Below, one piece after another: positions 3,096 through 63,504 of a DNA stretch of 64,000 nucleotides. Positions within the stretch are counted from its first letter, which is position 1. Every line of letters begins with the position of its first letter. Source of the DNA: an uncultured Bacilli bacterium (GTDB taxonomy: Bacteria; Bacillota_I; Bacilli_A; RF39; UBA660); assembly GCA_944332005.1 (NCBI GenBank), contig CALVJD010000002.1, positions 3,836 through 67,835 on the forward strand, given 5' to 3'. Under the pieces are notes generated by a model. The model worked only from the letters and a program-made list of their open reading frames with translations. It was not told the DNA's origin and did no database searches. A program made the position numbers and the translations under genes.

Positions 3096-3103
3096 TTTGT
3101 AAC

Positions 3104-3131
3104 TTGACTTTTTTTCGGTTGCTGTTATAAT
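3104..3131 (+). promoter_or_regulatory. sigma-A-type promoter (TTGACT, 16 bp spacer, TGtTATAAT)
   Basis: Consensus -35 and extended -10 hexamers read directly from the sequence. Confidence 0.5.
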
Positions 3132-3138
3132 GATAATA

Positions 3139-3235
3139 GCGTGAATACGTTCACGCTTGAGGCTCTTACGGACTAAGTGTGAGAGTGCTCAACCAAAAAA
3201 CCCCCTGAGATCCCTAGTAATAGGGATCATTTTTG
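3139..3235 (+). ncRNA. candidate small RNA of about 95 nt (5' hairpin plus intrinsic terminator); no family recognised
   Basis: It has its own promoter and a perfect 5' inverted repeat gcgtgaa-tac-gttcacgc. A terminator hairpin gatccctag-taa-tagggatc with a T-run follows. No ORF is present, and a second promoter lies downstream for the next gene. Confidence 0.3.
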
Positions 3236-3346
3236 TGCTTATTTCACTAGTTTACTTTTTTTTGACAAAAAAACGTAAAATAACTATTTTTTTATAGTAA
3301 AATATGCTATAATTCATGTATGGAATATAAAAGGAGGAAATAATAT

Positions 3347-3634
3347 ATGGAAGAAAAACAAATGATTAATGTAATAAAAGAAGACGGAACCCCTGGAGAA
3401 GCTGAAGTTTTGTTGAATTTCACTTTAGATCTTACTGGAAAGGAATATCTTTTATATACATTTAATGAAGTAGATGAAAAAGGTTTAGTAACGGTTCATG
3501 CTTCAACGGTAGATCGTAGTAATAATGGTCATGTTGTGTTAAAGGGAATTGATACAGACGAAGAGTGGTCTGAGATCAAACGTGTCATGAAAGAAGTTAT
3601 CAAACAAGTTCAAGCATCAAAAAAAAGCGAATAG
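3347..3634 (+). CDS. DUF1292-family small protein
   Basis: 95 aa preceded by the RBS aaaggagg. The sequence pattern is typical of Firmicutes DUF1292 proteins. Confidence 0.6.
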   Translation: MEEKQMINVIKEDGTPGEAEVLLNFTLDLTGKEYLLYTFNEVDEKGLVTVHASTVDRSNNGHVVLKGIDTDEEWSEIKRVMKEVIKQVQASKKSE

Positions 3635-3646
3635 GAGTGATCATTC

Positions 3647-4993
3647 ATGGTAAATGAAGAAACATTAGGAATAGCACGCGAAGAGTTACGTGACGCTAAA
3701 AAGAATATGTATTATCAAATATTTGAACGTGGGAAAGAACAAGGTTATAGCGATGATCAGATAATAAAATTTATGGAAGAGCCTATACCAGCTCCTATGA
3801 ATTATAAGGAAAGACAACGTTATCTTGCGGAAAATGGGAACGAAGCAGTACTGATAAATGATAATAATTTTTGGCAATTTGCGACGCGTTTAAAAACACT
3901 TTATGATGAAAAATTGTCTCATTATAACAAGTTAGAACGAGAGTATAATCATCAGTTGTTGGTTGAAGAAAAACGTGAACAATTTAATCTTCGCCTTATG
4001 GAAATTAAAGAAGAAGAAGCACGTTTGACTGATGAAGTAGAACCAAACGGTGTGGCTGAATATTATACGAAAATGCAAGAATTAGAAAAGGAAAGAAAGC
4101 AACTTGCAAATAAATTATCATTTTTGTCCTTACATCCAGAATTAGTTGAAAAAATTGATCAAATTACCATTCATGATGATATGACTTATACCAATCCTGA
4201 AGTTAAAACTTATATGGAACGTTTGCAAGAAGAGAAAACGAAGGTAGAACAAGAGAAAAAAGTAGAAGAAGAAAAGAAATCGGAAGAAGAGAAGAAATCG
4301 GAAGAAGAGAAGGTGAAAGTAGATCCTAATCCTTCTAATCAAGAGGAAAAACAAGATCAAATACAAGATTCAAAGGTAGAAAAGCCGTTAGAGGATATCA
4401 AGCAAGAAGGAAGTAAGAAAAGTAAAGCATTACCTAAAATGGTAAAAAGTTTGGCAGGTGCTGGAAAAGTATTAGCAGCAGGTGCGATTGTAGGAGCTAC
4501 TTTACTTGGTTTTGGTACGATTGTTGCTACTTTCGGAACTGCTGTTGGGACTGCTGTCGCAATTGGGGGTGGAGTAACTGCTGGTGCAGTTTACGTGGCT
4601 CGAAAATTCCATATACCAGGAAAATTAAAGGAATTTATTTTCGCTCCTGAAGATTCGATTGAAGAAGAAGATAGCCGTGATATTCGTATGACCAATGAAT
4701 ATGTAGAAGATCTTAAAGAGGCTAATAATCAAGTAAAAATTGAAAATCATATGGAACCTGTACAGGATCCAAATAAAGTTGTCGAAGAAGAAATTCCTAC
4801 ATTACATGCGTCAGATGATCAGGGACGAGCTGTCATTGAACCGGTCGGTGATCCACAGAAGACGGATGAATTAGAAATTGAAGCTCCAAAATCAATTCAA
4901 ATTCAAACGTTGAACCAAGCAAAGCAAAACTTACAAGAAAATGCTAAAACTTTAATTAGTCAAGCGGTTGAAAGTAACGCTTATACTAAATAG
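3647..4993 (+). CDS. hypothetical coiled-coil protein with KKSEEE repeats and a Gly/Ala-zipper transmembrane segment
   Basis: 448 aa. It contains tandem KKSEEEK repeats and a hydrophobic stretch AGAIVGATLLGFGTIVATFGTAVGTAVAIGGG. No catalytic motif was found. Confidence 0.5.
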   Translation: MVNEETLGIAREELRDAKKNMYYQIFERGKEQGYSDDQIIKFMEEPIPAPMNYKERQRYLAENGNEAVLINDNNFWQFATRLKTLYDEKLSHYNKLEREYNHQLLVEEKREQFNLRLMEIKEEEARLTDEVEPNGVAEYYTKMQELEKERKQLANKLSFLSLHPELVEKIDQITIHDDMTYTNPEVKTYMERLQEEKTKVEQEKKVEEEKKSEEEKKSEEEKVKVDPNPSNQEEKQDQIQDSKVEKPLEDIKQEGSKKSKALPKMVKSLAGAGKVLAAGAIVGATLLGFGTIVATFGTAVGTAVAIGGGVTAGAVYVARKFHIPGKLKEFIFAPEDSIEEEDSRDIRMTNEYVEDLKEANNQVKIENHMEPVQDPNKVVEEEIPTLHASDDQGRAVIEPVGDPQKTDELEIEAPKSIQIQTLNQAKQNLQENAKTLISQAVESNAYTK

Positions 4994-5047
4994 AGATAGT
5001 TTAAAATTGTTCAAATAGTTCATACTAAAAATAATGAGGTGATTAAT

Positions 5048-5518
5048 ATGAAAAAAATTGCTTTATTATTTTTTTTGTTGATTTTTTTGATCAGAATATG
5101 TGATTCTCATCCAATATTACAACCTATGATTGGGGTGAGTGGTTATTTAGATCGTGATCCTTTTCTTGCTACTTATGAAATTGATTTTAGCAATTTGCAA
5201 GTAAATACGAACAATTTAAAAGATTACTTGTTGGAAGATATGGAAGTATTGATGATAAAGCCATTTTTTTCTGAGGTTGTAGATAAAAAAATAAAACAAA
5301 AGGAGTTTTATTTTAATTATGCGAGTAATCAAAATAATTTGGATCGAATGCTTACATATTATCAAAAAATATTGAGAGAAAATGGTTTTATAAAAGAACT
5401 TACCCAAATTGATTATATGGGAATCCGCATTTTAAAGGTTAGAGTAAAAGCTTCTCATGCCACTATGGAAGCCTTGCAAAATCGTGAACCAAAGATTCGA
5501 TATCAACCAGTTTATTAA
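5048..5518 (+). CDS. secreted hypothetical protein
   Basis: ATG at 5048 follows the RBS gaggtga. The N-terminus is a signal peptide MKKIALLFFLLIFLIRICDS. The track start at 5039 is a GTG. Confidence 0.55.
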   Translation: MKKIALLFFLLIFLIRICDSHPILQPMIGVSGYLDRDPFLATYEIDFSNLQVNTNNLKDYLLEDMEVLMIKPFFSEVVDKKIKQKEFYFNYASNQNNLDRMLTYYQKILRENGFIKELTQIDYMGIRILKVRVKASHATMEALQNREPKIRYQPVY

Positions 5519-5587
5519 GAACGTGTGTCGTTCTTTTTTCTTGTCATTTATCATATTTTGTAGTATACTGAGTTCAAGGTGATAAGT

Positions 5588-6013
5588 ATGGTTTATATAT
5601 GGCTTGGAATAATTATTTTACTTACTTTAATCGAATTGATGACGGTCAATTTGACCACTATTTGGTTCGTGATTAGTGGATTGGTTGCTCTGGGTGTTTC
5701 CTTTATCAATGATAGTTTTCTTGTTCAATTTGGTTGGTTTGCTGTTTTGGGAATTATATTATTAGTGATTACTCGTCCACTTTTGCAAAAATGGCTCGTT
5801 AGAGATGGAGAAAAGACGAATTTAGATCGTGTTGTTGGAATGGAAGGTGTCGTAACTGAAGAAATTACGAGAAAACATATGGGGGAAGTAAAGGTAGACG
5901 GGAAAAAATGGACTGCTTTTATCGATACGGGACGTAAAATTAAGGTTGGATGTACCGTTCGAGTACTAGCCATTGATGGAGTAAAGTTAAAGGTAGAAGA
6001 AGTAGAGGAGTAG
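5588..6013 (+). CDS. NfeD-family membrane protein (short form)
   Basis: Two TM helices plus a C-terminal OB-like domain, located upstream of an SPFH gene. The start was moved to the ATG after the RBS aaggtga. Confidence 0.75.
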   Translation: MVYIWLGIIILLTLIELMTVNLTTIWFVISGLVALGVSFINDSFLVQFGWFAVLGIILLVITRPLLQKWLVRDGEKTNLDRVVGMEGVVTEEITRKHMGEVKVDGKKWTAFIDTGRKIKVGCTVRVLAIDGVKLKVEEVEE

Positions 6014-6017
6014 TTGT

Positions 6018-6917
6018 ATGGAGTTATTTATTATTTTAGTTGTATTGGCTGCCGTTTTAATCATTCCTAATATTAAAGTCGTACCACAAGCCAAAGCATA
6101 TGTAATTGAACGAATTGGTTCTTATTATGGTACCTGGTCAAACGGGTTACATTTTAAAATTCCGTTCGTCGATCGTATTTCTAATCGTGTCAGTTTAAAG
6201 GAAATTGTAAAGGATTTTGATCCACAACCAGTGATTACCAAAGATAATGTTACGATGCAGATTGACACTGTAGTTTATTTTCAAATTACGGATGCAAAAC
6301 TATATACTTATGGTGTTGAAGATCCTATCCGCGCCATTGAAAATTTAACAGCGACTACGCTTCGTAATTTGATTGGTGATTTGGAGCTCGATCAAACGTT
6401 AACATCTAGAGATATTATCAATTCTAAAATGCGTGCTATTTTAGATGAAGCAACTGACCCATGGGGTATTAAAGTGAATCGTGTTGAAGTAAAAAATATT
6501 ATTCCTCCTCGTGATATTCAAGAGGCGATGGAAAAACAAATGCGTGCAGAACGTGAACGTCGCGAAAAAATTTTACAAGCAGAAGGAGAGAAAAAATCTA
6601 GTATCTTGATTGCTGAAGGAGAAAAAGAAAGTGCTATCTTGCGTGCAGAAGCGAAACGTGAAAGTCAAATTCGGATTGCCGAAGGCGAAGCAGAAGCTAT
6701 TTTAAAACTAAAAGAAGCAGAAGCACAGGGAATTAAATTGTTAAAAGAGGCAAAGGCTGATCAGGCTGTTTTAACATTAAAAAGTTTTGATGCTCTTAGA
6801 GATCTTGCAAATGGAGAAGCGACCAAAATTATTGTTCCATCTGATTTACAGAATATGGCTACTTTAGGTGTAACTTTAAAAGAAATGTTTCAAGAACATA
6901 ATAAGAAGGGATCATAG
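6018..6917 (+). CDS. SPFH/Band 7 (stomatin-like) protein
   Basis: N-terminal TM helix, an SPFH core and a C-terminal Ala/Glu-rich coiled coil. It forms the classic NfeD-SPFH operon. Confidence 0.85.
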   Translation: MELFIILVVLAAVLIIPNIKVVPQAKAYVIERIGSYYGTWSNGLHFKIPFVDRISNRVSLKEIVKDFDPQPVITKDNVTMQIDTVVYFQITDAKLYTYGVEDPIRAIENLTATTLRNLIGDLELDQTLTSRDIINSKMRAILDEATDPWGIKVNRVEVKNIIPPRDIQEAMEKQMRAERERREKILQAEGEKKSSILIAEGEKESAILRAEAKRESQIRIAEGEAEAILKLKEAEAQGIKLLKEAKADQAVLTLKSFDALRDLANGEATKIIVPSDLQNMATLGVTLKEMFQEHNKKGS

Positions 6918-8509: not shown

Positions 8510-10105
8510 ATGAGAATTTATTTTCTATTATCATTAATTCCATTGTTGATTTATTTTATTTTAAAAAGTAAAAAAGCATTACATATGTTGCAACAAAACT
8601 GGTATAACGAAGATGAACGCTTTTTTAAATGGATTATACAGAATCGCTACCGTGTGTTTGTCGATAATGATATGTTGTTTGTCGTAGCAGCATGTCTTGC
8701 CTTGGTTGTAAATTCTAATCTGGCTATGATTTTATTTGATTTTTTCTATATGGTAGTCACTTATCTTTACTTTACGAGAATGCGTAAAGAACAGGTAAAA
8801 AAACCACTTGTGTTTACAAAGCGTGTTATGCGTCTTTGTATTACGATTGTTCTTTTATACTTAATAGCTATTTTACCAATGATGATTTGGTTTGATGAAA
8901 ATTTGATTGGTTACTATTACTTTATTTTGGGTGCATTAATCTATTTTCATTATTTTGTTGTTATGTTGGCAGCATTCATCAATGTTCCAATCGAAAAAGG
9001 TGTTTTCTATTATTATAAACATCAAGCGTCTCGTAAACTTGCTAGTTTAAATCGTATGAAAGTGATTGGAATTACGGGGAGTTATGGGAAAACGAGTAGT
9101 AAGAATATTTTGAATGATATTTTGAATGTCAAATATATTGCTTTTGCGACTCCGAAGAATTTCAATACGACGTATGGATTAATTAATACAGTCAATAATT
9201 ATCTTGATAAATTTAATGATTATTTTATTGCTGAAATGGGTGCATTTAAACGTGGAGAAATCAAAGAATTGTGTGATTTTGTAAAACCTACTTATGGAAT
9301 TTTAACGACGATAGGAACTGCTCATTTGGAAAGTTTTGGTAGTCGTGAAAATATTCAAAAAGGGAAATTTGAATTGATCGAATCATTGCCAAGTGATGGT
9401 TGCGGTATTTTAAATGCTGATGATCCTTATCAACGTTCTTACGAGTTAAAGAATGATTGTAAGATTTTATGGATCGGTATCGAAAATCATGATGTTGATT
9501 TGTATGCAACTAATATTAAACTTTCTCATCAAGGTACTTCTTTTGATTGTGTTTTTAAAGGTGATAAAACGAAGTATCATTTTGAAACAAGGTTATTAGG
9601 GCGTCACAATATTTATAATATTTTGTCCTCTATTTGTTTAGGAAAGTATTTAGGCATTAGTATTCCAGAATTGCAACTAGCAGTAAAGCGTGTAAATCCT
9701 GTAGAACATCGTTTAGAATTAAAGAAATATGGGCAAATTAATATTATTGATGATGCTTATAATTCTAATCCAGTTGGTTCTAAAATGGCAGTTGAAGTAC
9801 TAGGAATGATGCCTGGAAAACGAATCATTGTAACGCCTGGTATGATCGAACTTGGAATTGAACAATATAAACTTAATAATGAATTTGGTCATGTGATTGC
9901 CGGTCATGCCGATATTGTGATTTTAATTGGAAAGGATCAAACAAAACCAATTTATGACGGTTTGAAAGAAGAAAAATTTAAAGAGAAAAATATTTATGTT
10001 TTGAATGATGTAAAAGAGGCTTTCCCTCTTGTAACAAAATTAAGTGAAGGTCATGAGACCTATGTATTACTAGAAAACGATTTACCTGATATATTTAACG
10101 AATAG
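8510..10105 (+). CDS. murF: Mur ligase family protein, MurF-like (UDP-MurNAc-tripeptide--D-Ala-D-Ala ligase) with an N-terminal polytopic membrane extension
   Basis: P-loop GITGSYGKTS and Mur ligase central and C-terminal domains. The first ~180 aa are hydrophobic TM helices instead of the canonical MurF N-domain. The gene sits next to ddl. Confidence 0.65.
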   Translation: MRIYFLLSLIPLLIYFILKSKKALHMLQQNWYNEDERFFKWIIQNRYRVFVDNDMLFVVAACLALVVNSNLAMILFDFFYMVVTYLYFTRMRKEQVKKPLVFTKRVMRLCITIVLLYLIAILPMMIWFDENLIGYYYFILGALIYFHYFVVMLAAFINVPIEKGVFYYYKHQASRKLASLNRMKVIGITGSYGKTSSKNILNDILNVKYIAFATPKNFNTTYGLINTVNNYLDKFNDYFIAEMGAFKRGEIKELCDFVKPTYGILTTIGTAHLESFGSRENIQKGKFELIESLPSDGCGILNADDPYQRSYELKNDCKILWIGIENHDVDLYATNIKLSHQGTSFDCVFKGDKTKYHFETRLLGRHNIYNILSSICLGKYLGISIPELQLAVKRVNPVEHRLELKKYGQINIIDDAYNSNPVGSKMAVEVLGMMPGKRIIVTPGMIELGIEQYKLNNEFGHVIAGHADIVILIGKDQTKPIYDGLKEEKFKEKNIYVLNDVKEAFPLVTKLSEGHETYVLLENDLPDIFNE

Positions 10106-12915: not shown

Positions 12916-12992
12916 TGGTGTCCCCTTGCGGGCTCGAACCGCAGACCCACTGATTAAGAGTCAGTTGCTCTACCAACTGAGCTAAGGAGACA
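12916..12992 (-). tRNA. tRNA-Lys(CTT)
   Basis: Manual cloverleaf: acceptor tgtctcc, anticodon loop ctCTTaa, T-arm ggttcgagcc, encoded CCA. Confidence 0.8.
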
Positions 12993-12997
12993 AAGCA

Positions 12998-13075
12998 TGG
13001 TGGGCGATATAGGACTCGAACCTATGACCCCCTGCTTGTAAGGCAGGTGCTCTAACCAACTGAGCTAATCGCCCG
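12998..13075 (-). tRNA. tRNA-Val(TAC)
   Basis: Manual cloverleaf: anticodon stem cctgc/gcagg, loop ctTACaa, encoded CCA. Confidence 0.8.
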
Positions 13076-13309
13076 TTACGTATTACATTTTACCTTATTT
13101 TATATAAAAACGCAATCCTTTTTTCCAAATTTATGGGAATTTAATAGAAGAGATCGTTTTTTTGAATCTCATGAAATAAATAGCAAATAAGAATGATAAA
13201 GAATAAATTTTCGAAATGAGAATAAACTATAGTAGACTAGGAATATTCGATTAAAAACAAGAAAATAAGTTAGAAATGGGAAAAAATAAAAAAATTATGG
13301 GAAAAACTC

Positions 13310-13338
13310 TTGTCAAAGTATGAAAAATCGTGTATACT
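13310..13338 (+). promoter_or_regulatory. strong sigma-A promoter (TTGTCA, 17 bp spacer, TGtATACT) for the plus-strand tRNA operon
   Basis: Read directly from the sequence, about 22 nt upstream of tRNA-Ile. Confidence 0.6.
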
Positions 13339-13359
13339 GAAATAGTCTTATGGAAAAGT

Positions 13360-13436
<77 letters not shown>

Positions 13437-13442
13437 TTTATT

Positions 13443-13519
13443 GCCTCAATAGCTCAGTTGGTTAGAGCACTTGACTGTTAATCAAGGGGTCGCTGGTTCG
13501 AGTCCAGCTTGGGGCGCCA
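13443..13519 (+). tRNA. tRNA-Asn(GTT)
   Basis: Anticodon loop ctGTTaa; CCA encoded. Confidence 0.85.
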
Positions 13520-13525
13520 TTTAAT

Positions 13526-13602
13526 GGCCCGTTGGTGAAGTGGTTCAACACACATGCCTTTCACGCATGCATTCATGGGTTCAAATCCCGTACGGGTCAC
13601 CA
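13526..13602 (+). tRNA. tRNA-Glu(TTC)
   Basis: Acceptor ggcccgt; anticodon loop ctTTCac; CCA encoded. Confidence 0.85.
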
Positions 13603-13652
13603 TTTAGAAATTACTTGCTTATGCAAGTTTTTTTGTTGTATAATAAGTTTAT

Positions 13653-13737
13653 GCAGGAATGGTGGAATTGGTAGACACGCAAGATTCAGGTTCTTGTGAA
13701 GAGATTCATGTGGGTTCGAGTCCCATTTCCTGCACCA
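13653..13737 (+). tRNA. tRNA-Leu(CAG)
   Basis: Long variable arm; anticodon stem caaga/tcttg with loop ttCAGgt; CCA encoded. Confidence 0.8.
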
Positions 13738-13875
13738 TAAGAGTTTAATCGGAACCTTTAGAGGTTTTTAGATCATTTATCGTAGAACTTTAAAGTCTTT
13801 TTCTGTTATTCTGATTGACAAACGAATCATTATAAGGTAAAATGTTAAATGTCCATGATGATGTATATATTGTTA

Positions 13876-13967
13876 TTAGAAATCTGGAGACGTACTCAAG
13901 AGGCTGAAGAGGCGCCCCTGCTAAGGGTGTAGATCGGGGTAACCGGTGCGAGGGTTCAAATCCCTCC
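13876..13967 (+). tRNA. tRNA-Ser(GCT)
   Basis: Long variable arm; anticodon loop ctGCTaa; CCA encoded. A TTGACA..TATAAG promoter lies upstream. Confidence 0.8.
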
Positions 13968-14061
13968 GTCTCCGCCATTTTAGTAGTTAAAGTTTTACTT
14001 TTAGTAAAGCTTTTTTATTTTAAATTTTGTTATAACGCATTTCGCATTGGAGGTTGGTTGT

Positions 14062-25037: not shown

Positions 25038-25111
25038 TGGAGCAGCTGAGGAGAATCGAACTCCCGTCTCAACCTTGGCAAGGTTGCATTCTACCATTAA
25101 ACCACAGCTGC
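25038..25111 (-). tRNA. tRNA-Gly(GCC)
   Basis: Acceptor gcagctg/cagctgc, anticodon loop ttGCCaa, CCA encoded. Confidence 0.8.
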
Positions 25112-29961: not shown

Positions 29962-30035
29962 TGGAGCGGATGATGAGAATCGAACTCACGTAGTCAGCTT
30001 GGAAGGCTGAGGTTCTACCATTAAACTACATCCGC
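29962..30035 (-). tRNA. tRNA-Gly(TCC)
   Basis: Acceptor gcggatg/catccgc, anticodon loop ctTCCaa, CCA encoded. Confidence 0.8.
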
Positions 30036-33561: not shown

Positions 33562-33614
33562 ATATCCAAATGGATATTTTTTTTCTTATCTTCCATACTA
33601 GTATTGGTGATACT

Positions 33615-35027
33615 ATGTTTGAAAGATATGAGATTCGTAAAATGGATGGAGAAGAAGTATTATATTTATACGTGAATCATGATTATGAATTTGGTATTTT
33701 AGATTCGGTTCGTGAGGCAGGAAAAAATTTGATTGGTGAAATTAACCAATATATTCAAGATCGTAAAATTCGTTTTCGTGGAAAAAAGGTTGCTTTAGTC
33801 GTAAATGGAATTTTAGTTACTTCTTTACTAGTAGCATCGAATTATCCGGATTTTGTGTTTCCTGAGAAGCCGAATAGGTTACCAACTCTTTCCATTACCG
33901 AGGTATTGTTACCCGATAAAAAAGAAGAACTTCCTTCCAAAGAAGAGCAGGGATTAGACGGAGAAGTGATCGTGGATGTAGAAGATGAGGTGACCGAAAA
34001 CGTCGAAAATGAATTGGTGATGGAAGATACGAATTCTTCTATCACTTCTAATCCATCGACAAAGCCTAATGCGTCTAAGCCATCCACTGATACGGGAACA
34101 TCAAAACCTTCGACTGGTACTTCTAGTCCATCTATCTCTATTCCTAATGAGACTCCAGTGGAAGACTCTACCCCAGTCGTGAAACCGGAAGCACCATCAA
34201 AACCGACGAGTCCAGAAGATCCTTATACGACTGGGATTGGAATACCAGTGACGGTTATTCGAAGCAATGGTACGATTATTCAGCTTGCCCTGGAAGATTA
34301 TGTGATTGGCGTTGTCGCAGCTGAGATGCCAGCCTCTTTTTCGATAGAGGCATTGAAAGCACAAGCGGTAGCAGCGAGAACTTATGTTTTAAAGAAAATC
34401 AAACAGAATCAAACGGTTACCGATACCATTCAGGATCAAGTATATAAAGATGTTGATCAATTAAAAAAAGAATGGGGAAATGGTTTTACAACTTATTATA
34501 ATAAAGTAAAACAGGCGGTGTTAGATACGCAAGGGAAGGCGATCTATTATCACAATCAGTTGATCGATGCCGTTTATTTTTCTACTTCGAATGGTAGAAC
34601 GGAAGATGCGAAAGAGGTGTGGGGGAATGCCTTTTCTTACTTAGTGAGTGTCGATAGTCCATGGGATGTCGGTACGAGGGAATATTTAAAGACGGTTGTA
34701 AAATCACGTCAAGATGTCAGTAATCGTTTGGGCATCGAGTTAAGTGAGGATACGCCAATTGAAGTATTAGAACGCAGTAGTGGGAATCGAATTGTGACAA
34801 TCAAAATTGGTACAAAAATTTTTCGAGGTGTTGATTTATATAATAAGCTTGGCCTTCGTAGTCGCGATTTTGATATGTGGGTGGAAGGTGATTCGGTTTA
34901 TTTTACTACCCGTGGTTGGGGTCATGGCGTAGGAATGAGCCAATATGGAGCGAATGGAATGGCCAAGGCAGGATATCGTTATGACCAAATTCTAACTCAT
35001 TATTATCAAGGTGTTACGATCAAATAA
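33615..35027 (+). CDS. SpoIID/LytB-domain protein with a Pro/Ser/Thr-rich linker
   Basis: C-terminal SpoIID motifs (GWGHGVGMSQYGA), an N-terminal TM helix and a low-complexity linker. An upstream TTG start is also possible. Confidence 0.75.
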   Translation: MFERYEIRKMDGEEVLYLYVNHDYEFGILDSVREAGKNLIGEINQYIQDRKIRFRGKKVALVVNGILVTSLLVASNYPDFVFPEKPNRLPTLSITEVLLPDKKEELPSKEEQGLDGEVIVDVEDEVTENVENELVMEDTNSSITSNPSTKPNASKPSTDTGTSKPSTGTSSPSISIPNETPVEDSTPVVKPEAPSKPTSPEDPYTTGIGIPVTVIRSNGTIIQLALEDYVIGVVAAEMPASFSIEALKAQAVAARTYVLKKIKQNQTVTDTIQDQVYKDVDQLKKEWGNGFTTYYNKVKQAVLDTQGKAIYYHNQLIDAVYFSTSNGRTEDAKEVWGNAFSYLVSVDSPWDVGTREYLKTVVKSRQDVSNRLGIELSEDTPIEVLERSSGNRIVTIKIGTKIFRGVDLYNKLGLRSRDFDMWVEGDSVYFTTRGWGHGVGMSQYGANGMAKAGYRYDQILTHYYQGVTIK

Positions 35028-57712: not shown

Positions 57713-57760
57713 TTTGGAAACATTTGGGACGATTTTCATATAATGAATTAGGTGGTTATC

Positions 57761-58153
57761 ATGGCGAAAAAAGAGGAATTTAAGGAATTTGTAAAAAAAC
57801 ATCCAAGACTTTTAAAGCCAGTTCAAAATGGCGAGACAACTTGGCAAAAACTTTATGAGATATATGATCTATATGGGGAAGAAGGAGAGGCTTGGAACGA
57901 TTATTTAAAACCGAAGAACGAGGATCGTGCATTGAATACTGAAAAAGCAGCGGTTGGTGCGGCAACAGGATTTGGCCTTGCCGAACTAGTAAACGTGTTT
58001 AAAAATCTTGATTTAGATAGTTTACAGAATGGAATTGGGAATATACAAAGAGTACTTGGAGTGATTCAAGATTTTGGACGAAAAGAGAATACGACTGATA
58101 CTAAGAAAACCCAATATAAACCAAGACCAATCTATAAACATTTTGAGGATTAA
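57761..58153 (+). CDS. YlbD-like protein (putative spore coat protein family)
   Basis: Synteny ylbD-ylbE-rsmD(ylbH) as in Bacillus subtilis. RBS aggtgg. Confidence 0.5.
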   Translation: MAKKEEFKEFVKKHPRLLKPVQNGETTWQKLYEIYDLYGEEGEAWNDYLKPKNEDRALNTEKAAVGAATGFGLAELVNVFKNLDLDSLQNGIGNIQRVLGVIQDFGRKENTTDTKKTQYKPRPIYKHFED

Positions 58154-58374
58154 TGGTATTAGATTTACAATTTAAAATTAAAAATAATCCCAATTACCAA
58201 CGTTATTTACGAGAACATTCTTATTGGTATAAAACACTCAATCGTGATCCTTCGACTTTTCGTGCTTTTGAAGAAGAAGTAAAAGATGCTTATCGACTGA
58301 GAACAAGCGATAAAATTAGTAAAGCTTTGGATACTTTAGAGATGGTAAGTGCATTGATGTCGACTTTGAAATAG
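58153..58374 (+). CDS. YlbE-like small protein
   Basis: NNPNYQRYLREHSYWYKTLNRDP resembles B. subtilis YlbE. TAATG overlap with the upstream gene. Confidence 0.55.
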   Translation: MVLDLQFKIKNNPNYQRYLREHSYWYKTLNRDPSTFRAFEEEVKDAYRLRTSDKISKALDTLEMVSALMSTLK

Positions 58375-58497
58375 AGTATAATAAAAAAAGAAAACTCATA
58401 AATATGAGTTTCTATGAAGGGGAGTATCGGTCGTGATCTTTCACGACATTACTATTATGGACAATCCTTTTTAGATTTATACGAAAGAAGTGACAAT

Positions 58498-59040
58498 ATG
58501 CGAATTATTAGTGGGAAATATAGAGGAAGAGTATTAAAAGGATTCGATATCGAAGGTACGAGACCAACGATGGATCGTGTTAAAGAATCCTTGTTTGCAA
58601 TGATTCAAGAGCAAGTGAAAGAAAGTATTTGTCTCGACTTATTTGCTGGAAGTGGGAATTTAGGAATAGAAGCATTATCGAATGGTGCAAAAGAATGTTA
58701 TTTTGTCGATCATAATAAGCTTGCTACAAAAACGATACAGGAAAATATGCAGGCACTAATATTAAAGGATGATGACTATATTTTTACGATGGATTATATG
58801 GATGCACTTCGTTACTTCGAAAGAGAACAAATCCAATTTGACATTATTTTTTTAGATCCTCCTTATCACATGAATGTCATTAGTTCAATCTTATCGTATA
58901 TTGTCGATCATCATTTGTTGACCGATAAAGGAATTGTTATCTGCGAATATGAAAAAGAAGAACCTACTAATCATCAATTAATACTATGGAAAGAACGTAA
59001 GTATGGTTCTAAGAAAATACGGATTTATCGAAATTGCTAA
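58498..59040 (+). CDS. rsmD: 16S rRNA (guanine966-N2)-methyltransferase RsmD
   Basis: Motifs LDLFAGSG and DIIFLDPPY. The start at 58498 is MRIISGKYRG. Confidence 0.85.
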   Translation: MRIISGKYRGRVLKGFDIEGTRPTMDRVKESLFAMIQEQVKESICLDLFAGSGNLGIEALSNGAKECYFVDHNKLATKTIQENMQALILKDDDYIFTMDYMDALRYFEREQIQFDIIFLDPPYHMNVISSILSYIVDHHLLTDKGIVICEYEKEEPTNHQLILWKERKYGSKKIRIYRNC

Positions 59041-59112: not shown

Positions 59113-61212
59113 ATGTTAAGAAAATATCCATTTGTACCACAAGAAGGAGAAAAAGATTGCGGTGTTGCATCACTTGCGATGATTATTCTATTTTATAAAG
59201 GTAATGTACCACTGGAAAAGTTACGGGAATTATCGAAAACGGATCGTAGAGGTGTAACAGCCTATCATTTAGTAGAATGTGCGAAAGAAATTGGGTTTCA
59301 TGCAAGAGGTCTCAAATGTTCGTTAGAAGACTTGGAGCGTAATCTTCATTATCCTATGATTGCTCATGTCACATTAGAAAAGAAATACCAACATTATATT
59401 GTCATTTATCGAATTGAACCCTCAAAAAAACGACTTTTAGTCGCAGATCCTAGCGAAAGAAAAATAAAGCGCATTAGTTATCAAGAATTTCTTGAAATTT
59501 GGGATCAAATTGTGATTGAGCTATACCCTTATAAACAATTACCTCGTTATCATAATTCGACTTCTTTTTTCGAATTATTACGTTCACTCGTTAGTCACTT
59601 TAAATGGGAATTACTACAAGTCTTTTTTCTGTCGATATTTGTAACCTTATTTGCCATTATACTCTCTTTTTATTTTCAGTCGATGATCGATGGTATTCAG
59701 TACTATTCGAATAAAGACTATTTCTTTCATCTGTTTCTTATTTTCCTTACCTTTGCTTTTTTAAAAGAAATGACCAATTATTTTCGAAATGATTTGATGA
59801 TTCGCGTTGCTCATCGAATCGATTACTTACTTACAAATGGAACGTTTGAAAAACTTTTACATCTTCCTTATTATTATTATCGTAGCCGAACAACAGGAGA
59901 AGTTGTATCACGAATGAATGATCTAGGAGTTGTCCAAAATTTTATTAGTCGATTGTTTGTGACTGTTTTTGTCGATTGTTTGTTATCGATAATTTGTCTC
60001 ATTTGTCTATTTTTTATTGATTTTAAGTTAACTTGTATTGCCTTATTAATGGCTTTTGGATATGGAGTAATATGGTGGTTTTTTCGCCCTTGGTTTTCTA
60101 AATATATTCAAAAAGGACAAGCCTTGCGCGGTGAGGTCCATTCGCATATGGTGGAATCCATTGCCGGATACGAAACGATTCAAGCTTTATCTTTAGAAAA
60201 TAATAGACAAGAAGAGTTAGAGACAAAGTATTATCGCTGGACGCACAATCAAATCAAAGGGGAAACACTTTATAACATTCAACTATTTTTAAAAGAATTG
60301 CTAGGTCAAATTGGATTTTTGTGGTTAATTTTGATGGGGATTTACGCGGTTTTAGATCAACGCATCAGTTTAGGTATGTTACTAACATATCAAATGTTAT
60401 TTTCCTATTTTATGGAACCTGTAAAAGCATTTATGGATGCGGATACCAATTTTAAAGAAGTGAAATTTGCTTTGAAACGAGTCTTAGAACTGTTTGTGGA
60501 AAGAGAAGAGGAAAAGACATTACTAGTCCCATTCTCACTTCCGATCGTATTTCATCATCTGAATTATACTTATAATGATCAAAAGTTGATTTTAAAAAAC
60601 ATTAATTTAACATTCAAACAAGGTGAAAAAACAATGATTGTCGGAAATAGTGGTGGTGGAAAGAGTACACTATTAAAATTGATTTTACATGATTATCCGC
60701 TCAAACGAGATCAACTTCAAATTGGTGGATACGATATTAATGATTATGATCGTAAAGAGTTAAAACAGAATATTGCTTATATTTCACAACAAGAAATGTT
60801 ATTTACAGGAACTCTTTATGATAATTTAACACTTGATCGACAAGTCTCACAAGATACATTTTCGAAAATAGTTCAGTTATGCGAAATTGATCAAATTATT
60901 CAAAATGAACCATTAGGATATTTTATGTTGATCGAAGAAGACGGTTTTAATTTATCCGGTGGTGAAAGAGAACGTATTTTTCTTGCTCGTGCACTTCTTC
61001 GTAATCAATCTTTTTTAATGATCGATGAAGGAATGGGACAGATGGATCTTTCGATGGAACGACGTATCTTAAAAAGGATGATTGAGGAATATCCAGCAAT
61101 GACCTTGATTGTGGTATCTCATCGTACTGATAATCAAGATTTGTTCGATCGTATGATCGAAATTAATAAAGGAAAAATTAGAAAAGATGTGAGAAGAAAT
61201 GTCGTGGAATAA
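59113..61212 (+). CDS. bacteriocin-processing ABC transporter with an N-terminal C39 peptidase domain (SunT/LagD/ComA-like)
   Basis: C39 catalytic Cys (GEKDCGVASL) and His; six TM helices; Walker A GNSGGGKST; ABC signature LSGGERERI. Confidence 0.9.
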   Translation: MLRKYPFVPQEGEKDCGVASLAMIILFYKGNVPLEKLRELSKTDRRGVTAYHLVECAKEIGFHARGLKCSLEDLERNLHYPMIAHVTLEKKYQHYIVIYRIEPSKKRLLVADPSERKIKRISYQEFLEIWDQIVIELYPYKQLPRYHNSTSFFELLRSLVSHFKWELLQVFFLSIFVTLFAIILSFYFQSMIDGIQYYSNKDYFFHLFLIFLTFAFLKEMTNYFRNDLMIRVAHRIDYLLTNGTFEKLLHLPYYYYRSRTTGEVVSRMNDLGVVQNFISRLFVTVFVDCLLSIICLICLFFIDFKLTCIALLMAFGYGVIWWFFRPWFSKYIQKGQALRGEVHSHMVESIAGYETIQALSLENNRQEELETKYYRWTHNQIKGETLYNIQLFLKELLGQIGFLWLILMGIYAVLDQRISLGMLLTYQMLFSYFMEPVKAFMDADTNFKEVKFALKRVLELFVEREEEKTLLVPFSLPIVFHHLNYTYNDQKLILKNINLTFKQGEKTMIVGNSGGGKSTLLKLILHDYPLKRDQLQIGGYDINDYDRKELKQNIAYISQQEMLFTGTLYDNLTLDRQVSQDTFSKIVQLCEIDQIIQNEPLGYFMLIEEDGFNLSGGERERIFLARALLRNQSFLMIDEGMGQMDLSMERRILKRMIEEYPAMTLIVVSHRTDNQDLFDRMIEINKGKIRKDVRRNVVE

Positions 61213-61654
61213 GAAAATACTAGGTTTTCAATTGCTTAATCAACGCCCTAAACTATACAAGTTTTGGCTGGTATTACTAGTTTTTCTAGTGATCGTTGGT
61301 ATCATATTACTATTTCGTTCTTATACTACTTTTATCGAATGTACTGGACTTGTCGCACGAGAAGAAGATCGTTTTGATGTTAGAATATTGATTCAAGAAG
61401 ATGATATTCCATATTTATCTCATCACAGAGTCTTAATTAAGGGAAGGATAGAACAATTTCAAATTGAACACATCAGCGAATCTTATACTGTTGGTAATGA
61501 CGGTAATTTATATCGTGAAATTTTCTTGACATTCCCGCTTTTGGAAGAAGAAAAAATAGAAAATAACATTTTGTTTTTAACTTTTCAAAAGGAACGAATG
61601 AAGGGATTTCAATGGTTAAAAAAACAAATAGAAAAGGGGTTTCATAATGAATGA
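61199..61654 (+). CDS. bacteriocin export accessory/immunity-like membrane protein (possibly a truncated HlyD-like accessory factor)
   Basis: 151 aa with one N-terminal TM helix. It overlaps the transporter end and precedes the precursor peptides. Confidence 0.4.
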   Translation: MSWNKKILGFQLLNQRPKLYKFWLVLLVFLVIVGIILLFRSYTTFIECTGLVAREEDRFDVRILIQEDDIPYLSHHRVLIKGRIEQFQIEHISESYTVGNDGNLYREIFLTFPLLEEEKIENNILFLTFQKERMKGFQWLKKQIEKGFHNE

Positions 61655-61790
61655 GTTATCAAAACAAGAATTATTAAAAATAAACGGTGGAGGCATTAGT
61701 TTTGGAATCGGCTGCCTTATTGTTGGCGCGGTAATTTTTTTAATCGGTGTTATAGATGGTTATTTAAGACCATTAAAATGTAATGAATAG
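61647..61790 (+). CDS. class II bacteriocin precursor with a double-glycine leader (peptide A)
   Basis: Leader MNELSKQELLKINGG. The 32-aa hydrophobic mature peptide GISFGIGCLIVGAVIFLIGVIDGYLRPLKCNE has 2 Cys. This ORF is not in the track. Confidence 0.75.
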   Translation: MNELSKQELLKINGGGISFGIGCLIVGAVIFLIGVIDGYLRPLKCNE

Positions 61791-61800
61791 GAGGGATGAT

Positions 61801-61968
61801 ATGCAAGAATTATCAAAACAAGAAATGTTGCAGATCGAAGGGGGAATTAGCATTTCCGGAACCTTGATCAATTCTTTGGTACGAGGAATCAATGCTTTAT
61901 TAGATTTAGGTCGTGCACTAGGTAGTGCTATCAGAAGATTACAAGGAAATAATATATGTCCACTTTAA
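61801..61968 (+). CDS. class II bacteriocin precursor with a double-glycine leader (peptide B)
   Basis: RBS aggaggg. Leader MQELSKQEMLQIEGG. The 40-aa mature peptide is amphipathic and cationic. Confidence 0.75.
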   Translation: MQELSKQEMLQIEGGISISGTLINSLVRGINALLDLGRALGSAIRRLQGNNICPL

Positions 61969-62132
61969 AACACTTTTATCAAAACCATAAATTAATGATT
62001 CAGATAGGAGGTACCATTTTGTTACTTCCTTTCTTGCTTCCAATTGTCACGGTTCTGATAGAAATACTATTTGATAGTGGACAAATCATCGGAGATTATA
62101 TTCGTCGTATCACTGAAATTGGTATTTGTTAA
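61956..62132 (+). CDS. small hydrophobic ORF overlapping the end of peptide B, putative immunity peptide; a TTG start at 62026 after aggagg is an alternative
   Basis: 58 aa from the ATG, or 35 aa from the internal aggagg..TTG. It has a hydrophobic helix LLLPFLLPIVTVLIEILF. The last position in a bacteriocin operon is usually the immunity gene. Confidence 0.35.
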   Translation: MSTLKHFYQNHKLMIQIGGTILLLPFLLPIVTVLIEILFDSGQIIGDYIRRITEIGIC

Positions 62133-62152
62133 AATACAAATTCTGATGATCG

Positions 62153-62186
62153 AAAGGCTTATTTTGTTTTAAAATAAGCCTTTTTT
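62153..62186 (+). terminator. rho-independent terminator of the bacteriocin operon
   Basis: aggcttatttt..aaaataagcct followed by a T-run. Confidence 0.8.
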
Positions 62187-62317
62187 AATGATGTAAATAA
62201 TGGAATTTAGTGAAAGGAATGAAATTAATGTGATATTTTGCTTTTTCTTGTATTTATTATTGAACTATCAAAAGAGAAGTGTTATAATATCTCTAGCTGA
62301 GAAGGGAGGGATTATGT

Positions 62318-62521
62318 ATGACAAAAGTTATTGTTCGAAATGGAAATGTGGAAAGCGCACTTCGTACTTTCAAACAAAAAAATGTGAAAAGTGGCCTCCT
62401 AAAAGAAGTTCGCGAGCGACAAGAAGGTTATATGAAACCTGGAGTTAAAAGAAGAAAGGCAAAACAAGAAGCAATTAAAAATAGTCGTAGAAAAAATAGA
62501 AGAGAACGTAATTATAATTAA
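62318..62521 (+). CDS. rpsU: 30S ribosomal protein S21
   Basis: 67 aa with the S21 pattern ALRTFKQK..G.L.EVRER..Y.KP. RBS aagggaggg. Confidence 0.85.
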   Translation: MTKVIVRNGNVESALRTFKQKNVKSGLLKEVRERQEGYMKPGVKRRKAKQEAIKNSRRKNRRERNYN

Positions 62522-62566
62522 TGGAGGGGCTTTTATGCCTCTTTCTTGTTATAGAAAGGATAGAAT

Positions 62567-63004
62567 ATGAGAGAAAGAATTTTAACGGATATTAAAAATG
62601 CAATGAAAAGTCAAAACAAATTTCGCCTGACCGTACTGCGTATGTTAAAGGGTGCTATGCAACTAGAGGAAATCAATAAGAAAAGAGAACTTAACGATGA
62701 TGAAGTGATCATGATTATCTCTAAACAAATAAAAACCAGAAAAGAATCGATTGCTGAATTCGAAAAAGGTGGCAGAGATGATCTAGTGGATCAGACGAAT
62801 CGCGAGATTGAAATATTGAATGAGTATATGCCAGAGCAACTTTCTGAAGAAGAACTAATGGCTATTATTGATCGTGTCATGAAAGAAGTAAATCCAACTA
62901 GTGTCAAAGATATGGGAAAAGTGATGGCTGCCATTACGCCATTTATCAAAGGAAAAGCTGATATGGGATCTGTTAGCAAAATGATTCGTGAACGTTTAAG
63001 CTAA
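62567..63004 (+). CDS. yqeY: GatB/YqeY domain protein
   Basis: 145 aa. The conserved rpsU-yqeY pair is present. Confidence 0.8.
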   Translation: MRERILTDIKNAMKSQNKFRLTVLRMLKGAMQLEEINKKRELNDDEVIMIISKQIKTRKESIAEFEKGGRDDLVDQTNREIEILNEYMPEQLSEEELMAIIDRVMKEVNPTSVKDMGKVMAAITPFIKGKADMGSVSKMIRERLS

Positions 63005-63026: not shown

Positions 63027-63081
63027 TTTGCTTTTTTGCAATGATAATGCTAGAATATTCTTGGAAAGTAAGGTAGATAAA

Positions 63082-63504
63082 ATGTATCAATTAGATCATT
63101 TTTTAATGGAGAAAAATAAGTATCAACAAAGTTTGTCTTTTATTGAGGCAAATGTAGCGGATTCCAAAGAAAGAGAAAGACAAATCGAAGTGTTAAAAAA
63201 GCAATTTCATTCTAGCATTGGATTATATTTATCGCCCGCTATTCAATATTTGAGTCAAGTTTTTCAAATTCATTATCAAGTTGTGAAAGAGACAATGGGG
63301 TACGATTCCAATTTTCATAAAATTTCTACACAAGTTCCTAAAACAGAAGAAGAGCTTATTCAAGATATGAAAAATTTCAAGAATCAAGCTCAAAACTACG
63401 ATGAAGAAGTTAAACATAAAGTCGACCTTGCGATCGAAGTGATCGCAAATTATTACCATTTGGATTTTGGAGCAAATGAAAAAGAAAGAGAAAAACGATT
63501 TTAA
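63082..63504 (+). CDS. hypothetical protein
   Basis: 141 aa from the ATG at 63082. No domain recognised. Confidence 0.45.
   Translation: MYQLDHFLMEKNKYQQSLSFIEANVADSKERERQIEVLKKQFHSSIGLYLSPAIQYLSQVFQIHYQVVKETMGYDSNFHKISTQVPKTEEELIQDMKNFKNQAQNYDEEVKHKVDLAIEVIANYYHLDFGANEKEREKRF

Follow-up and report, generated by a model that had tools for sequence, protein, structure and literature searches.

A candidate class IIb-type two-peptide bacteriocin operon conserved in a lineage of uncultured Bacilli

Introduction

What do the five genes lying between rsmD and rpsU in an uncultured member of the Bacilli produce, and for whose benefit is it exported? The window analysed here is a stretch of 64,000 nucleotides of contig CALVJD010000002.1 (positions 3,836 to 67,835, forward strand), in which positions 59113-62190 form one operon. 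This consists of an ATP-binding cassette (ABC) exporter with a C39 peptidase domain (PCAT), a small accessory candidate (ACC), two peptide precursors (pepA and pepB), and a hydrophobic micro-open reading frame (ORF3), followed by a terminator. A first-pass annotation of the sequence had listed the C39 ABC exporter, the small accessory gene and two peptides with double-glycine (GG) leaders, all of which we recovered, and had proposed a locus of the class II bacteriocin type, an assignment that is borne out by a catalytically complete exporter, by the two GG leaders and by a pepA sequence that passes the class IIb model TIGR03949. We consider it probable, at roughly 60%, that the locus is a chromosomal two-peptide bacteriocin operon of the class IIb type, conserved across its lineage.

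Results and discussion

Sequence features and families of pepA and pepB

Judged by their conservation, pepA and pepB are not chance open reading frames (ORFs), since a search of a set of 5.8 billion proteins identified 34 protein clusters for pepA and 24 for pepB, all from metagenomes or metagenome-assembled genomes (MAGs) labelled Bacilli or Mollicutes, and since the loci fetched for comparison contained 55 and 54 distinct copies, respectively. These loci (72 in total, numbered with the prefix L) were gathered by scanning genomes with RsmD, by looking up three pepA homologues and by scanning metagenomes with a pepB motif, and were mapped with hidden Markov models (HMMs) trained on the window and a handful of relatives. 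For pepB, the mechanical ORF begins at 61783; the start common to its homologues is 61801, with an AGGAGGG Shine-Dalgarno sequence 5 nt upstream.

The predicted cleavage dipeptide is GG, occasionally AG, in 55/55 pepA and 53/53 pepB sequences. Mature pepA (median 31 aa) contains a hydrophobic, helix-like segment and then an invariant F-x-x-G-x-x-D-G-x-x-R-P-x-x-C (residues F31, G34, D37, G38, R41, P42 and C45), and mature pepB (median 40 aa, mean net charge +3.3) contains an invariant G-R-x-L-G-x-A-I-R-R and then a Cys near the C-terminus (residues G37, G41, A43, I44, R45, R46 and C53). The metagenome scan used the motif GR[SA][LV]GSAIRR, so that the invariance of the pepB block is partly selected for in those loci, but the block is likewise invariant among the 24 clusters, which were obtained independently of the motif scan. 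Each peptide carries one invariant GxxxG, namely GVIDG in pepA (G34/G38) and GRxLG in pepB (G37/G41), with the motif present in 54/55 pepA and 53/53 pepB.

Exactly one Cys was found in 46 of the 55 mature pepA and 50 of the 53 mature pepB sequences, the conserved residue lying 0-4 positions from the end. PepA had been described as hydrophobic with two Cys, and its oxidation to form a disulfide had been foreseen for tests with synthetic peptide. The window copy is indeed hydrophobic and does contain two Cys; the internal disulfide, however, is unsupported and was rejected, because the second Cys (C23) is a minority feature (internal Cys in 9/55 pepA) and the C-terminal Cys alone is invariant. 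A disulfide between the chains of pepA and pepB, via the one conserved Cys of each, is conceivable.

Against TIGR03949 (class IIb, lactobin A/cerein 7B family) pepA scores 25.1 bits, above the cutoff of 21.5, and 30 of 35 pepA relatives match the same model (E ≤ 0.01), which places pepA within this family by score and pepB, at 13.6 bits, outside it. The pepA match covers model positions 2-35 of 45 and pepA residues 2-35, taking in the leader and the N-terminal, Gly-rich half of mature pepA. The invariant FLIGVIDGYxRPLKC block thus lies mostly outside the match, and the model does not capture the C-terminal block of pepA. Neither peptide reached the gathering cutoff of the Pfam family PF10439 Bacteriocin_IIc (16.7 bits for pepA and 14.2 bits for pepB versus 27.1, in matches that include the GG leader), and profile searches of PDB sequences with pepA and pepB returned nothing significant and no solved class IIb relative. 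We could not find pepB relatives in viral contigs; tblastn searches of plasmids gave no match for pepA and, for pepB, weak Streptococcus suis matches alone. Literature searches on the motifs, and on any description from rumen or RF39 MAGs, yielded nothing specific.

Adjacency and correlated divergence of the two peptide genes

From metagenomes we recovered 62 distinct pepA/pepB pairs, in the recurring gene order [rsmD]-PCAT-[ACC]-pepA-pepB-[ORF3]-rpsU-yqeY. Of 57 distinct pairs, 54 have pepA immediately before pepB, with the end of pepA no more than 40 bp from the pepB start (in the window, the pepA stop is at 61790 and pepB begins at 61801). A PCAT gene ends no further than 800 bp upstream of pepB in 42/47 cases, and rpsU is found within 2.6 kb downstream of pepB in 21 of the 24 loci with enough sequence. 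The more two pepA sequences differ, the more the corresponding pepB (Spearman r 0.41, Mantel p 0.0015) and PCAT (r 0.55, p 0.001) sequences tend to differ as well. Two adjacent peptide genes in one operon, with a GxxxG in both peptides, are features of class IIb systems.

Two options had been left open, a two-peptide bacteriocin or two separate ones. In the second case pepA and pepB would be independent one-peptide (class IId) bacteriocins that share an exporter, consistent with the fact that only pepA matches a curated bacteriocin family and with mature sequences that are dissimilar, as the first-pass annotation had stated: the profile match between the two peptides is limited to the leader and the first mature residues. 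However, single-peptide loci were not seen, except for L017 and L051, in which pepA is split by an element, there is at most one ORF3 per pair, and the two peptides are of complementary chemistry with a single invariant GxxxG each. The adjacency of the genes and the correlated divergence of their products therefore favour one two-peptide system of the class IIb type, and we regard two separate bacteriocins as very unlikely.

All three exceptions to the adjacency are insertions (L014, L017 and L051). In L014 (600-1283) a 227-aa methyltransferase-like ORF lies between intact pepA and pepB, the sole separation that disrupts neither gene. In L017 (5900-6010) and L051 (5740-6000) two different mobile elements disrupt pepA at one common position, within the codons that are most highly conserved, leaving pepB intact behind a 3’ remnant of pepA. 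The element in L017 has a gene for a 560-aa large serine recombinase, which ends 30 bp before pepB (pepA remnant GYVRPLKCN-stop), and that in L051 places a prophage tail, holin and lysin module in front of pepB (pepA remnant GLDGYTRPLACK-stop). It appears that integrating elements use the conserved pepA sequence for their attachment, in which case integration would inactivate the system.

The exporter PCAT

PCAT matches the Pfam families Peptidase_C39 (1.8e-34), ABC_membrane (1.6e-35) and ABC_tran (3.2e-26), all passing the cutoffs, in an architecture of N-terminal C39 peptidase, six-helix transmembrane domain and ATPase. Across 31 homologous exporters we found conservation of residues Q10, C16, H94 and D112, which we take as the catalytic residues of C39 peptidases, and of the Walker A motif, the signature LSGGE, the Walker B motif and the H-loop. 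The score of PCAT against TIGR01193 (peptide cleavage/export ABC transporter) is 421 bits, under the cutoff of 523.85, indicating a divergent member of the family. By these sequence features PCAT is a divergent but complete peptide cleavage/export ABC transporter, predicted to cut the GG leaders and to export both peptides. We additionally identified, in L041 (3-2123), a second ORF matching the PCAT HMM upstream of rsmD, besides the PCAT of the peptide operon, and in L010 (3489-4842) two paralogous proteins of 223-225 aa without a Pfam match just upstream of PCAT.

The accessory candidate ACC

We found no Pfam or NCBIfam match for ACC, with none in Pfam across 78 members of its family, and a profile search of PDB sequences gave nothing significant. 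A word-indexed search identified 2 clusters of homologues and an exhaustive profile search 86 representatives, nearly all of 130-155 aa. The AlphaFold2 model built on a 78-sequence alignment had a predicted local distance difference test score (pLDDT) of 90.5, compared with 56.6, which is unusable, for a 2-sequence alignment. The model contains a transmembrane helix (residues 17-39), a β-domain of six to seven strands and one short helix, and a C-terminal helix. The predicted topology, 24:1 in favour of N-in, is single-pass with an extracytoplasmic β-domain.

The best Foldseek matches of the model in the PDB were the membrane-fusion proteins MacA (3fpp, 5nik, 9qgy), Spr0693, BesA, AcrA and CusB, with about 85 aligned columns, probability up to 0.99 and E 0.04-0.4. 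The β-domain therefore resembles the β-barrel of adaptors of the HlyD/MacA type, and ACC may be a minimal accessory protein, a fold compatible with the accessory role suggested for this gene at first pass. Like membrane-fusion proteins of the HlyD/MacA type, ACC has an N-terminal transmembrane helix and an outward β-domain that superposes over about 85 residues; and, as a likeness to the membrane-fusion accessory proteins of ABC exporters, its gene overlaps the exporter’s stop codon. In contrast to these proteins, it has no α-hairpin, lipoyl domain or Pfam HlyD match, and it is absent from some lineages or reduced in them to a remnant of 59-60 aa. Although it lies outside that family, ACC may act like a membrane-fusion protein. 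If so, a β-barrel protein of about 150 aa can stand in for the large HlyD-type accessory protein of peptide exporters. In L004 (6825-7004) and L056 (5295-5477) the ACC gene is replaced by an acidic ORF of 59-60 aa without a transmembrane helix (beginning MEHDLLLFMENVLIDENKDD), which may be a remnant of the C-terminal part of ACC.

ORF3 as a candidate immunity protein

A hydrophobic micro-ORF overlapping the end of pepB had been put forward as a candidate immunity gene, and this proved to be a conserved family for which such a role is plausible. The 30 distinct ORF3 homologues share a basic N-terminal end, a single transmembrane helix containing a conserved Pro, and the motif G-x-x-[IV]-G-[TS]-x-x-R, with a GxxxG in 29/30 and a C-terminal Cys in 27/30. 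In an hhalign comparison the ORF3 and pepB families align by their C-terminal halves over 32 columns (probability 93%, E 3e-7), with a score of 34.2 versus 8.2±1.9 for 200 column shuffles (maximum 16.9). The controls were negative, as ORF3 versus pepA gave a probability of 0.2% and the reversed alignment a score of 13.6. The distance from GxxxG to Cys in the window is equal in ORF3 and pepB (SGQIIGDYIRRITEIGIC versus LGRALGSAIRRLQGNNIC).

A 13-nt overlap couples the translation of ORF3 to that of pepB. By the positive-inside rule its topology is N-in/C-out in 23 of the 25 decidable cases, so that the pepB-like part would face outward. ORF3 looks like a membrane-anchored paralogue of pepB and, in the simplest interpretation, would confer immunity as a pepB mimic, engaging either the partner of pepB or the target. 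If this is correct, a testable principle of immunity would follow, in which an anchored version of one toxin subunit, lacking a leader, serves as the decoy. We considered ORF3 as a third GG peptide, on account of the sequence IQIGG, and rejected this; L002 has IQIGS, the register is off the leader consensus, and there is no conserved GG.

The gene order is old in the clade

In two species-level relatives found via RsmD (89% and about 56% identity), the cluster likewise lies between rsmD and rpsU. Loci at greater distance retain PCAT-pepA-pepB-rpsU-yqeY with a differing upstream neighbour, such as suf genes in L004, and the order recurs in dozens of gut and rumen Bacilli loci, across lineages in which housekeeping proteins are only about 50-60% identical. 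We could not find coaD in the 64-kb window, or directly after rsmD in any of the fetched loci; in one lineage coaE-coaD lies about 1.6 kb beyond yqeY.

The first-pass annotation had instead interpreted the cluster as an insertion into conserved synteny at the place of coaD, that is, as a recently acquired island between rsmD and rpsU. Beyond the missing coaD, what speaks for this is the adjacency of rsmD and coaD in Bacillus subtilis. However, since rsmD is never followed by coaD in the fetched loci, and the window has no coaD, no rsmD-coaD pair of this clade was interrupted, and the displacement of coaD falls away. The insertion fares no better, given that both relatives found via RsmD have the cluster at the same site, that dozens of metagenome loci share its order, that the module stays intact as its upstream neighbours vary (rsmD, suf genes and others), and that we found no integrase, repeat or GC anomaly at the cluster. 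A recent island is therefore extremely unlikely, and the gene order indicates that the cluster is old in the clade. Strict vertical descent is suggested by the synteny only and is not proven, as the module and YqeY co-diverge only weakly (r about 0.2, p 0.04-0.12, Mantel).

A weapon, or part of the producer’s own biology

The proposed two-peptide bacteriocin would work as follows. PepA and pepB would be made as precursors with 15-residue GG leaders, which the C39 domain would remove by cutting after the GG as the transporter exports both peptides. ACC, with its transmembrane helix and a membrane-fusion-protein-like β-domain on the outer face, would assist the exporter. The hydrophobic pepA (32 aa) and the cationic, amphipathic pepB (40 aa) would then act as one unit in the target membrane, probably through helix-helix packing via the single conserved GxxxG of each (GVIDG and GRxLG). 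ORF3, lacking a leader, would stay in the membrane of the producer with its pepB-like half outward, taking the place of pepB beside pepA or on the target.

Several findings weigh against this proposal. Relative to the window, pepA is 33-83% and pepB 39-89% identical, in comparison with 49-68% for YqeY (92% in the close relative L002), 52-58% for RsmD (89% in L002), 24-44% for PCAT (83% in L002) and 19-32% for ACC (74% in L002). In conservation the peptides thus roughly equal YqeY and RsmD and surpass the transporter that would export them, and this slow evolution, along with a fixed chromosomal position, is not generally expected of a weapon in an arms race. ORF3 is present in 29 of the 51 loci with enough downstream sequence and absent from about 40%, and L003, L010 and L041 are without both ORF3 and ACC, which would be unusual if the pair were toxic to its producer. 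There is no regulator or induction peptide near the operon, in the window or on an identical ENA contig. PepB passes no curated family model in Pfam or NCBIfam and matches no solved bacteriocin structure, and the fold match of ACC is weak (E 0.04, TM-score 0.35) and covers a single domain.

Alternatively, the exported pair serves the biology of the producer itself, as a cell-cell signal, in fratricide or cannibalism linked to sporulation or competence, or as a component of a membrane complex, with ORF3 as a partner or receptor. The fixed position beside rpsU-yqeY, kept in lineages with only 49-68% YqeY identity, would be in keeping with such a function, as would a peptide conservation comparable to that of housekeeping proteins and above that of PCAT (setting L002 aside), the dispensability of ORF3, the lack of any mobile-element signature or GC shift around the cluster, and the presence of the sporulation-type genes SpoIID, YlbD and YlbE. 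However, no sensor kinase or regulator is adjacent in the window, on the ENA contig or in the looked-up homologue loci, and pepA passes a class IIb bacteriocin model. Pheromones are generally shorter and variable between strains, and GxxxG is typical of class IIb toxins; the mature peptides, at 31-40 aa, membrane-like and GxxxG-bearing, are unlike pheromones. We therefore hold a function in the producer’s own biology to be possible, but unlikely.

A more elaborate version combines several of these elements. In this, the products would be a slow-evolving, exported heterodimer that is not primarily a weapon and is near-core to an uncultured clade of gut, rumen and digester Bacilli, with an interchain disulfide between the single invariant C-terminal Cys residues of pepA and pepB, with ORF3 capturing pepA on the producer’s surface by mimicry (on the basis of the GxxxG-to-Cys spacing that it shares with pepB), as a mechanism of immunity or partnership, and with insertion of elements into pepA acting as a lysogeny off-switch. 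We consider this combination doubtful, and somewhat less probable than a role in the producer’s own biology taken by itself.

If the two-peptide bacteriocin is correct, four small-protein families that lack annotation (the pepA subfamily, pepB, ORF3 and ACC) make up a complete two-peptide system in uncultured Bacilli of gut, rumen and digester. A bacteriocin-type pair would then be conserved like housekeeping proteins, raising the question of whether it serves competition or the physiology of the producer.

Layout of the operon and neighbouring genes

The five ORFs of the operon lie on the same strand, with short gaps or overlaps, between rsmD (58414-59040) and rpsU (62318-62521) (Table 1), and none of them encodes a modification enzyme. 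The GC content of the cluster is 0.31-0.33, the same as in its flanks. The terminator closes the operon, and the promoter-like site downstream of it, a pattern match only, suggests that rpsU has its own transcription. RsmD was detected upstream of PCAT in 21 fetched loci by HMM mapping, making it the usual upstream neighbour. An identical sequence is present on an ENA metagenome contig (L001), where the public calls include ORFs of 47, 61 and 58 aa.

Table 1. Positions of the operon, its parts and its neighbours in the window
Feature	Position	Strand	Evidence and remarks
YlbD, YlbE and SpoIID-domain genes	57752-58374 and 33570-35027		
rsmD (16S rRNA m2G966 methyltransferase)	58414-59040	+	TIGR00095, 176 bits versus cutoff 117.5; outside the system
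PCAT, 699 aa	59113-61212	+	Pfam C39, ABC_membrane, ABC_tran
ACC, 151 aa	61199-61654	+	overlaps PCAT stop by 14 nt; no family match
pepA precursor, 47 aa	61647-61790	+	TIGR03949 above cutoff
pepA leader	61647-61691	+	MNELSKQELLKINGG
pepA mature, 32 aa, hydrophobic	61692-61787	+	GISFGIGCLIVGAVIFLIGVIDGYLRPLKCNE
pepB precursor, 55 aa	61801-61968	+	start shared by homologues; 24 homologous clusters
pepB leader	61801-61845	+	MQELSKQEMLQIEGG
pepB mature, 40 aa, cationic amphipathic	61846-61965	+	ISISGTLINSLVRGINALLDLGRALGSAIRRLQGNNICPL
ORF3, 58 aa	61956-62132	+	13-nt overlap with pepB; 30 distinct homologues
Intrinsic terminator	62152-62190	+	perfect 15-bp stem, then T-run; -15.2 kcal/mol, z -3.8
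Promoter-like site of rpsU	62260-62288	+	TTGAAC-17-TATAAT, extended TG; 10/12 consensus matches
rpsU and yqeY	62318-63004	+	Pfam Ribosomal_S21 and YqeY; usual downstream neighbours, outside the system

We additionally identified extra sequence between the peptide genes and rpsU in some lineages. In L015-L017, L031 and L034 about 1 kb is inserted between ORF3 and rpsU, which in L017 (6368-7207) encodes a 279-aa ORF (beginning MSELKEYTENIFEDIKHIDENGNEYWYARELQ), and in L010 (7505-9079) the stretch from pepB to rpsU encodes a 524-aa TPR-like protein and an adenine glycosylase. In the window, yqeY is followed by a 158-aa ORF (63028-63504), which is kept in L002 (152 aa) and for which the public gene call of contig L001 has no Pfam match on record, the ORF not having been scanned in this analysis. 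Eight tRNA genes are clustered on both strands at 12919-13974, with single tRNAs at 25041-25111 and 29965-30035.

The window also encodes a Mur ligase (8510-10105), a SpoIID-domain protein, FtsK, the coat-protein family member YlbD, and YlbE. The organism thus looks like a walled and possibly sporulating Firmicute, though related records are labelled ‘Mollicutes bacterium’. A wall-less producer, without a receptor linked to the cell wall, is unsupported in view of the Mur ligase and SpoIID.

Comparison with known two-peptide systems

A comparable annotated arrangement was found on the Streptococcus suis plasmid pBM407 (L073), of which positions 2950-6800 carry an array of six or more GG-leader peptides with the annotation lactobin A/cerein 7B family. 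Several peptides of this array are paired with an amphipathic ‘hypothetical’ partner, and these pairs are, to our knowledge, uncharacterised. One such partner, the amphipathic FVVTGTMIYTGVKLASASFALGYAIGQAIKNSK, adjoins a TIGR03949 peptide and is weakly similar to pepB over xTGTxI...LGxAxGxAI (about 10 bits with a mature-only profile, tblastn E 0.02-0.06). The plasmid array differs in having the B-like gene first, in being plasmid-borne and multi-copy, and in lacking the C-terminal Cys and the RR motif, and we regard the likeness as a lead, not as established homology.

Class IIb operons include those of lactococcin G, plantaricin EF/JK and ABP-118, and also CibAB-CibC of Streptococcus pneumoniae. 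What the operon described here has in common with this class is a pair of neighbouring genes encoding unmodified GG-leader peptides of 30-40 residues (one hydrophobic, the other cationic and amphipathic, with a GxxxG in each), a small membrane-protein gene after the peptides and, within the cluster, both a C39 ABC exporter and an accessory gene. In contrast, its peptides are unrelated in sequence to the solved class IIb peptides, and the locus is chromosomal, stable in position, slow-evolving over family- to order-level divergence and without regulatory genes. For immunity, the candidate is paralogous to one peptide and not of the Abi/CAAX or LagC type, and the accessory protein is of about 150 aa, not of the roughly 450-aa HlyD type. 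Thus, as a putative two-peptide system the operon is unusual in three of its parts, a minimal accessory protein, an immunity candidate that is itself related to one of the peptides, and conservation across a whole lineage.

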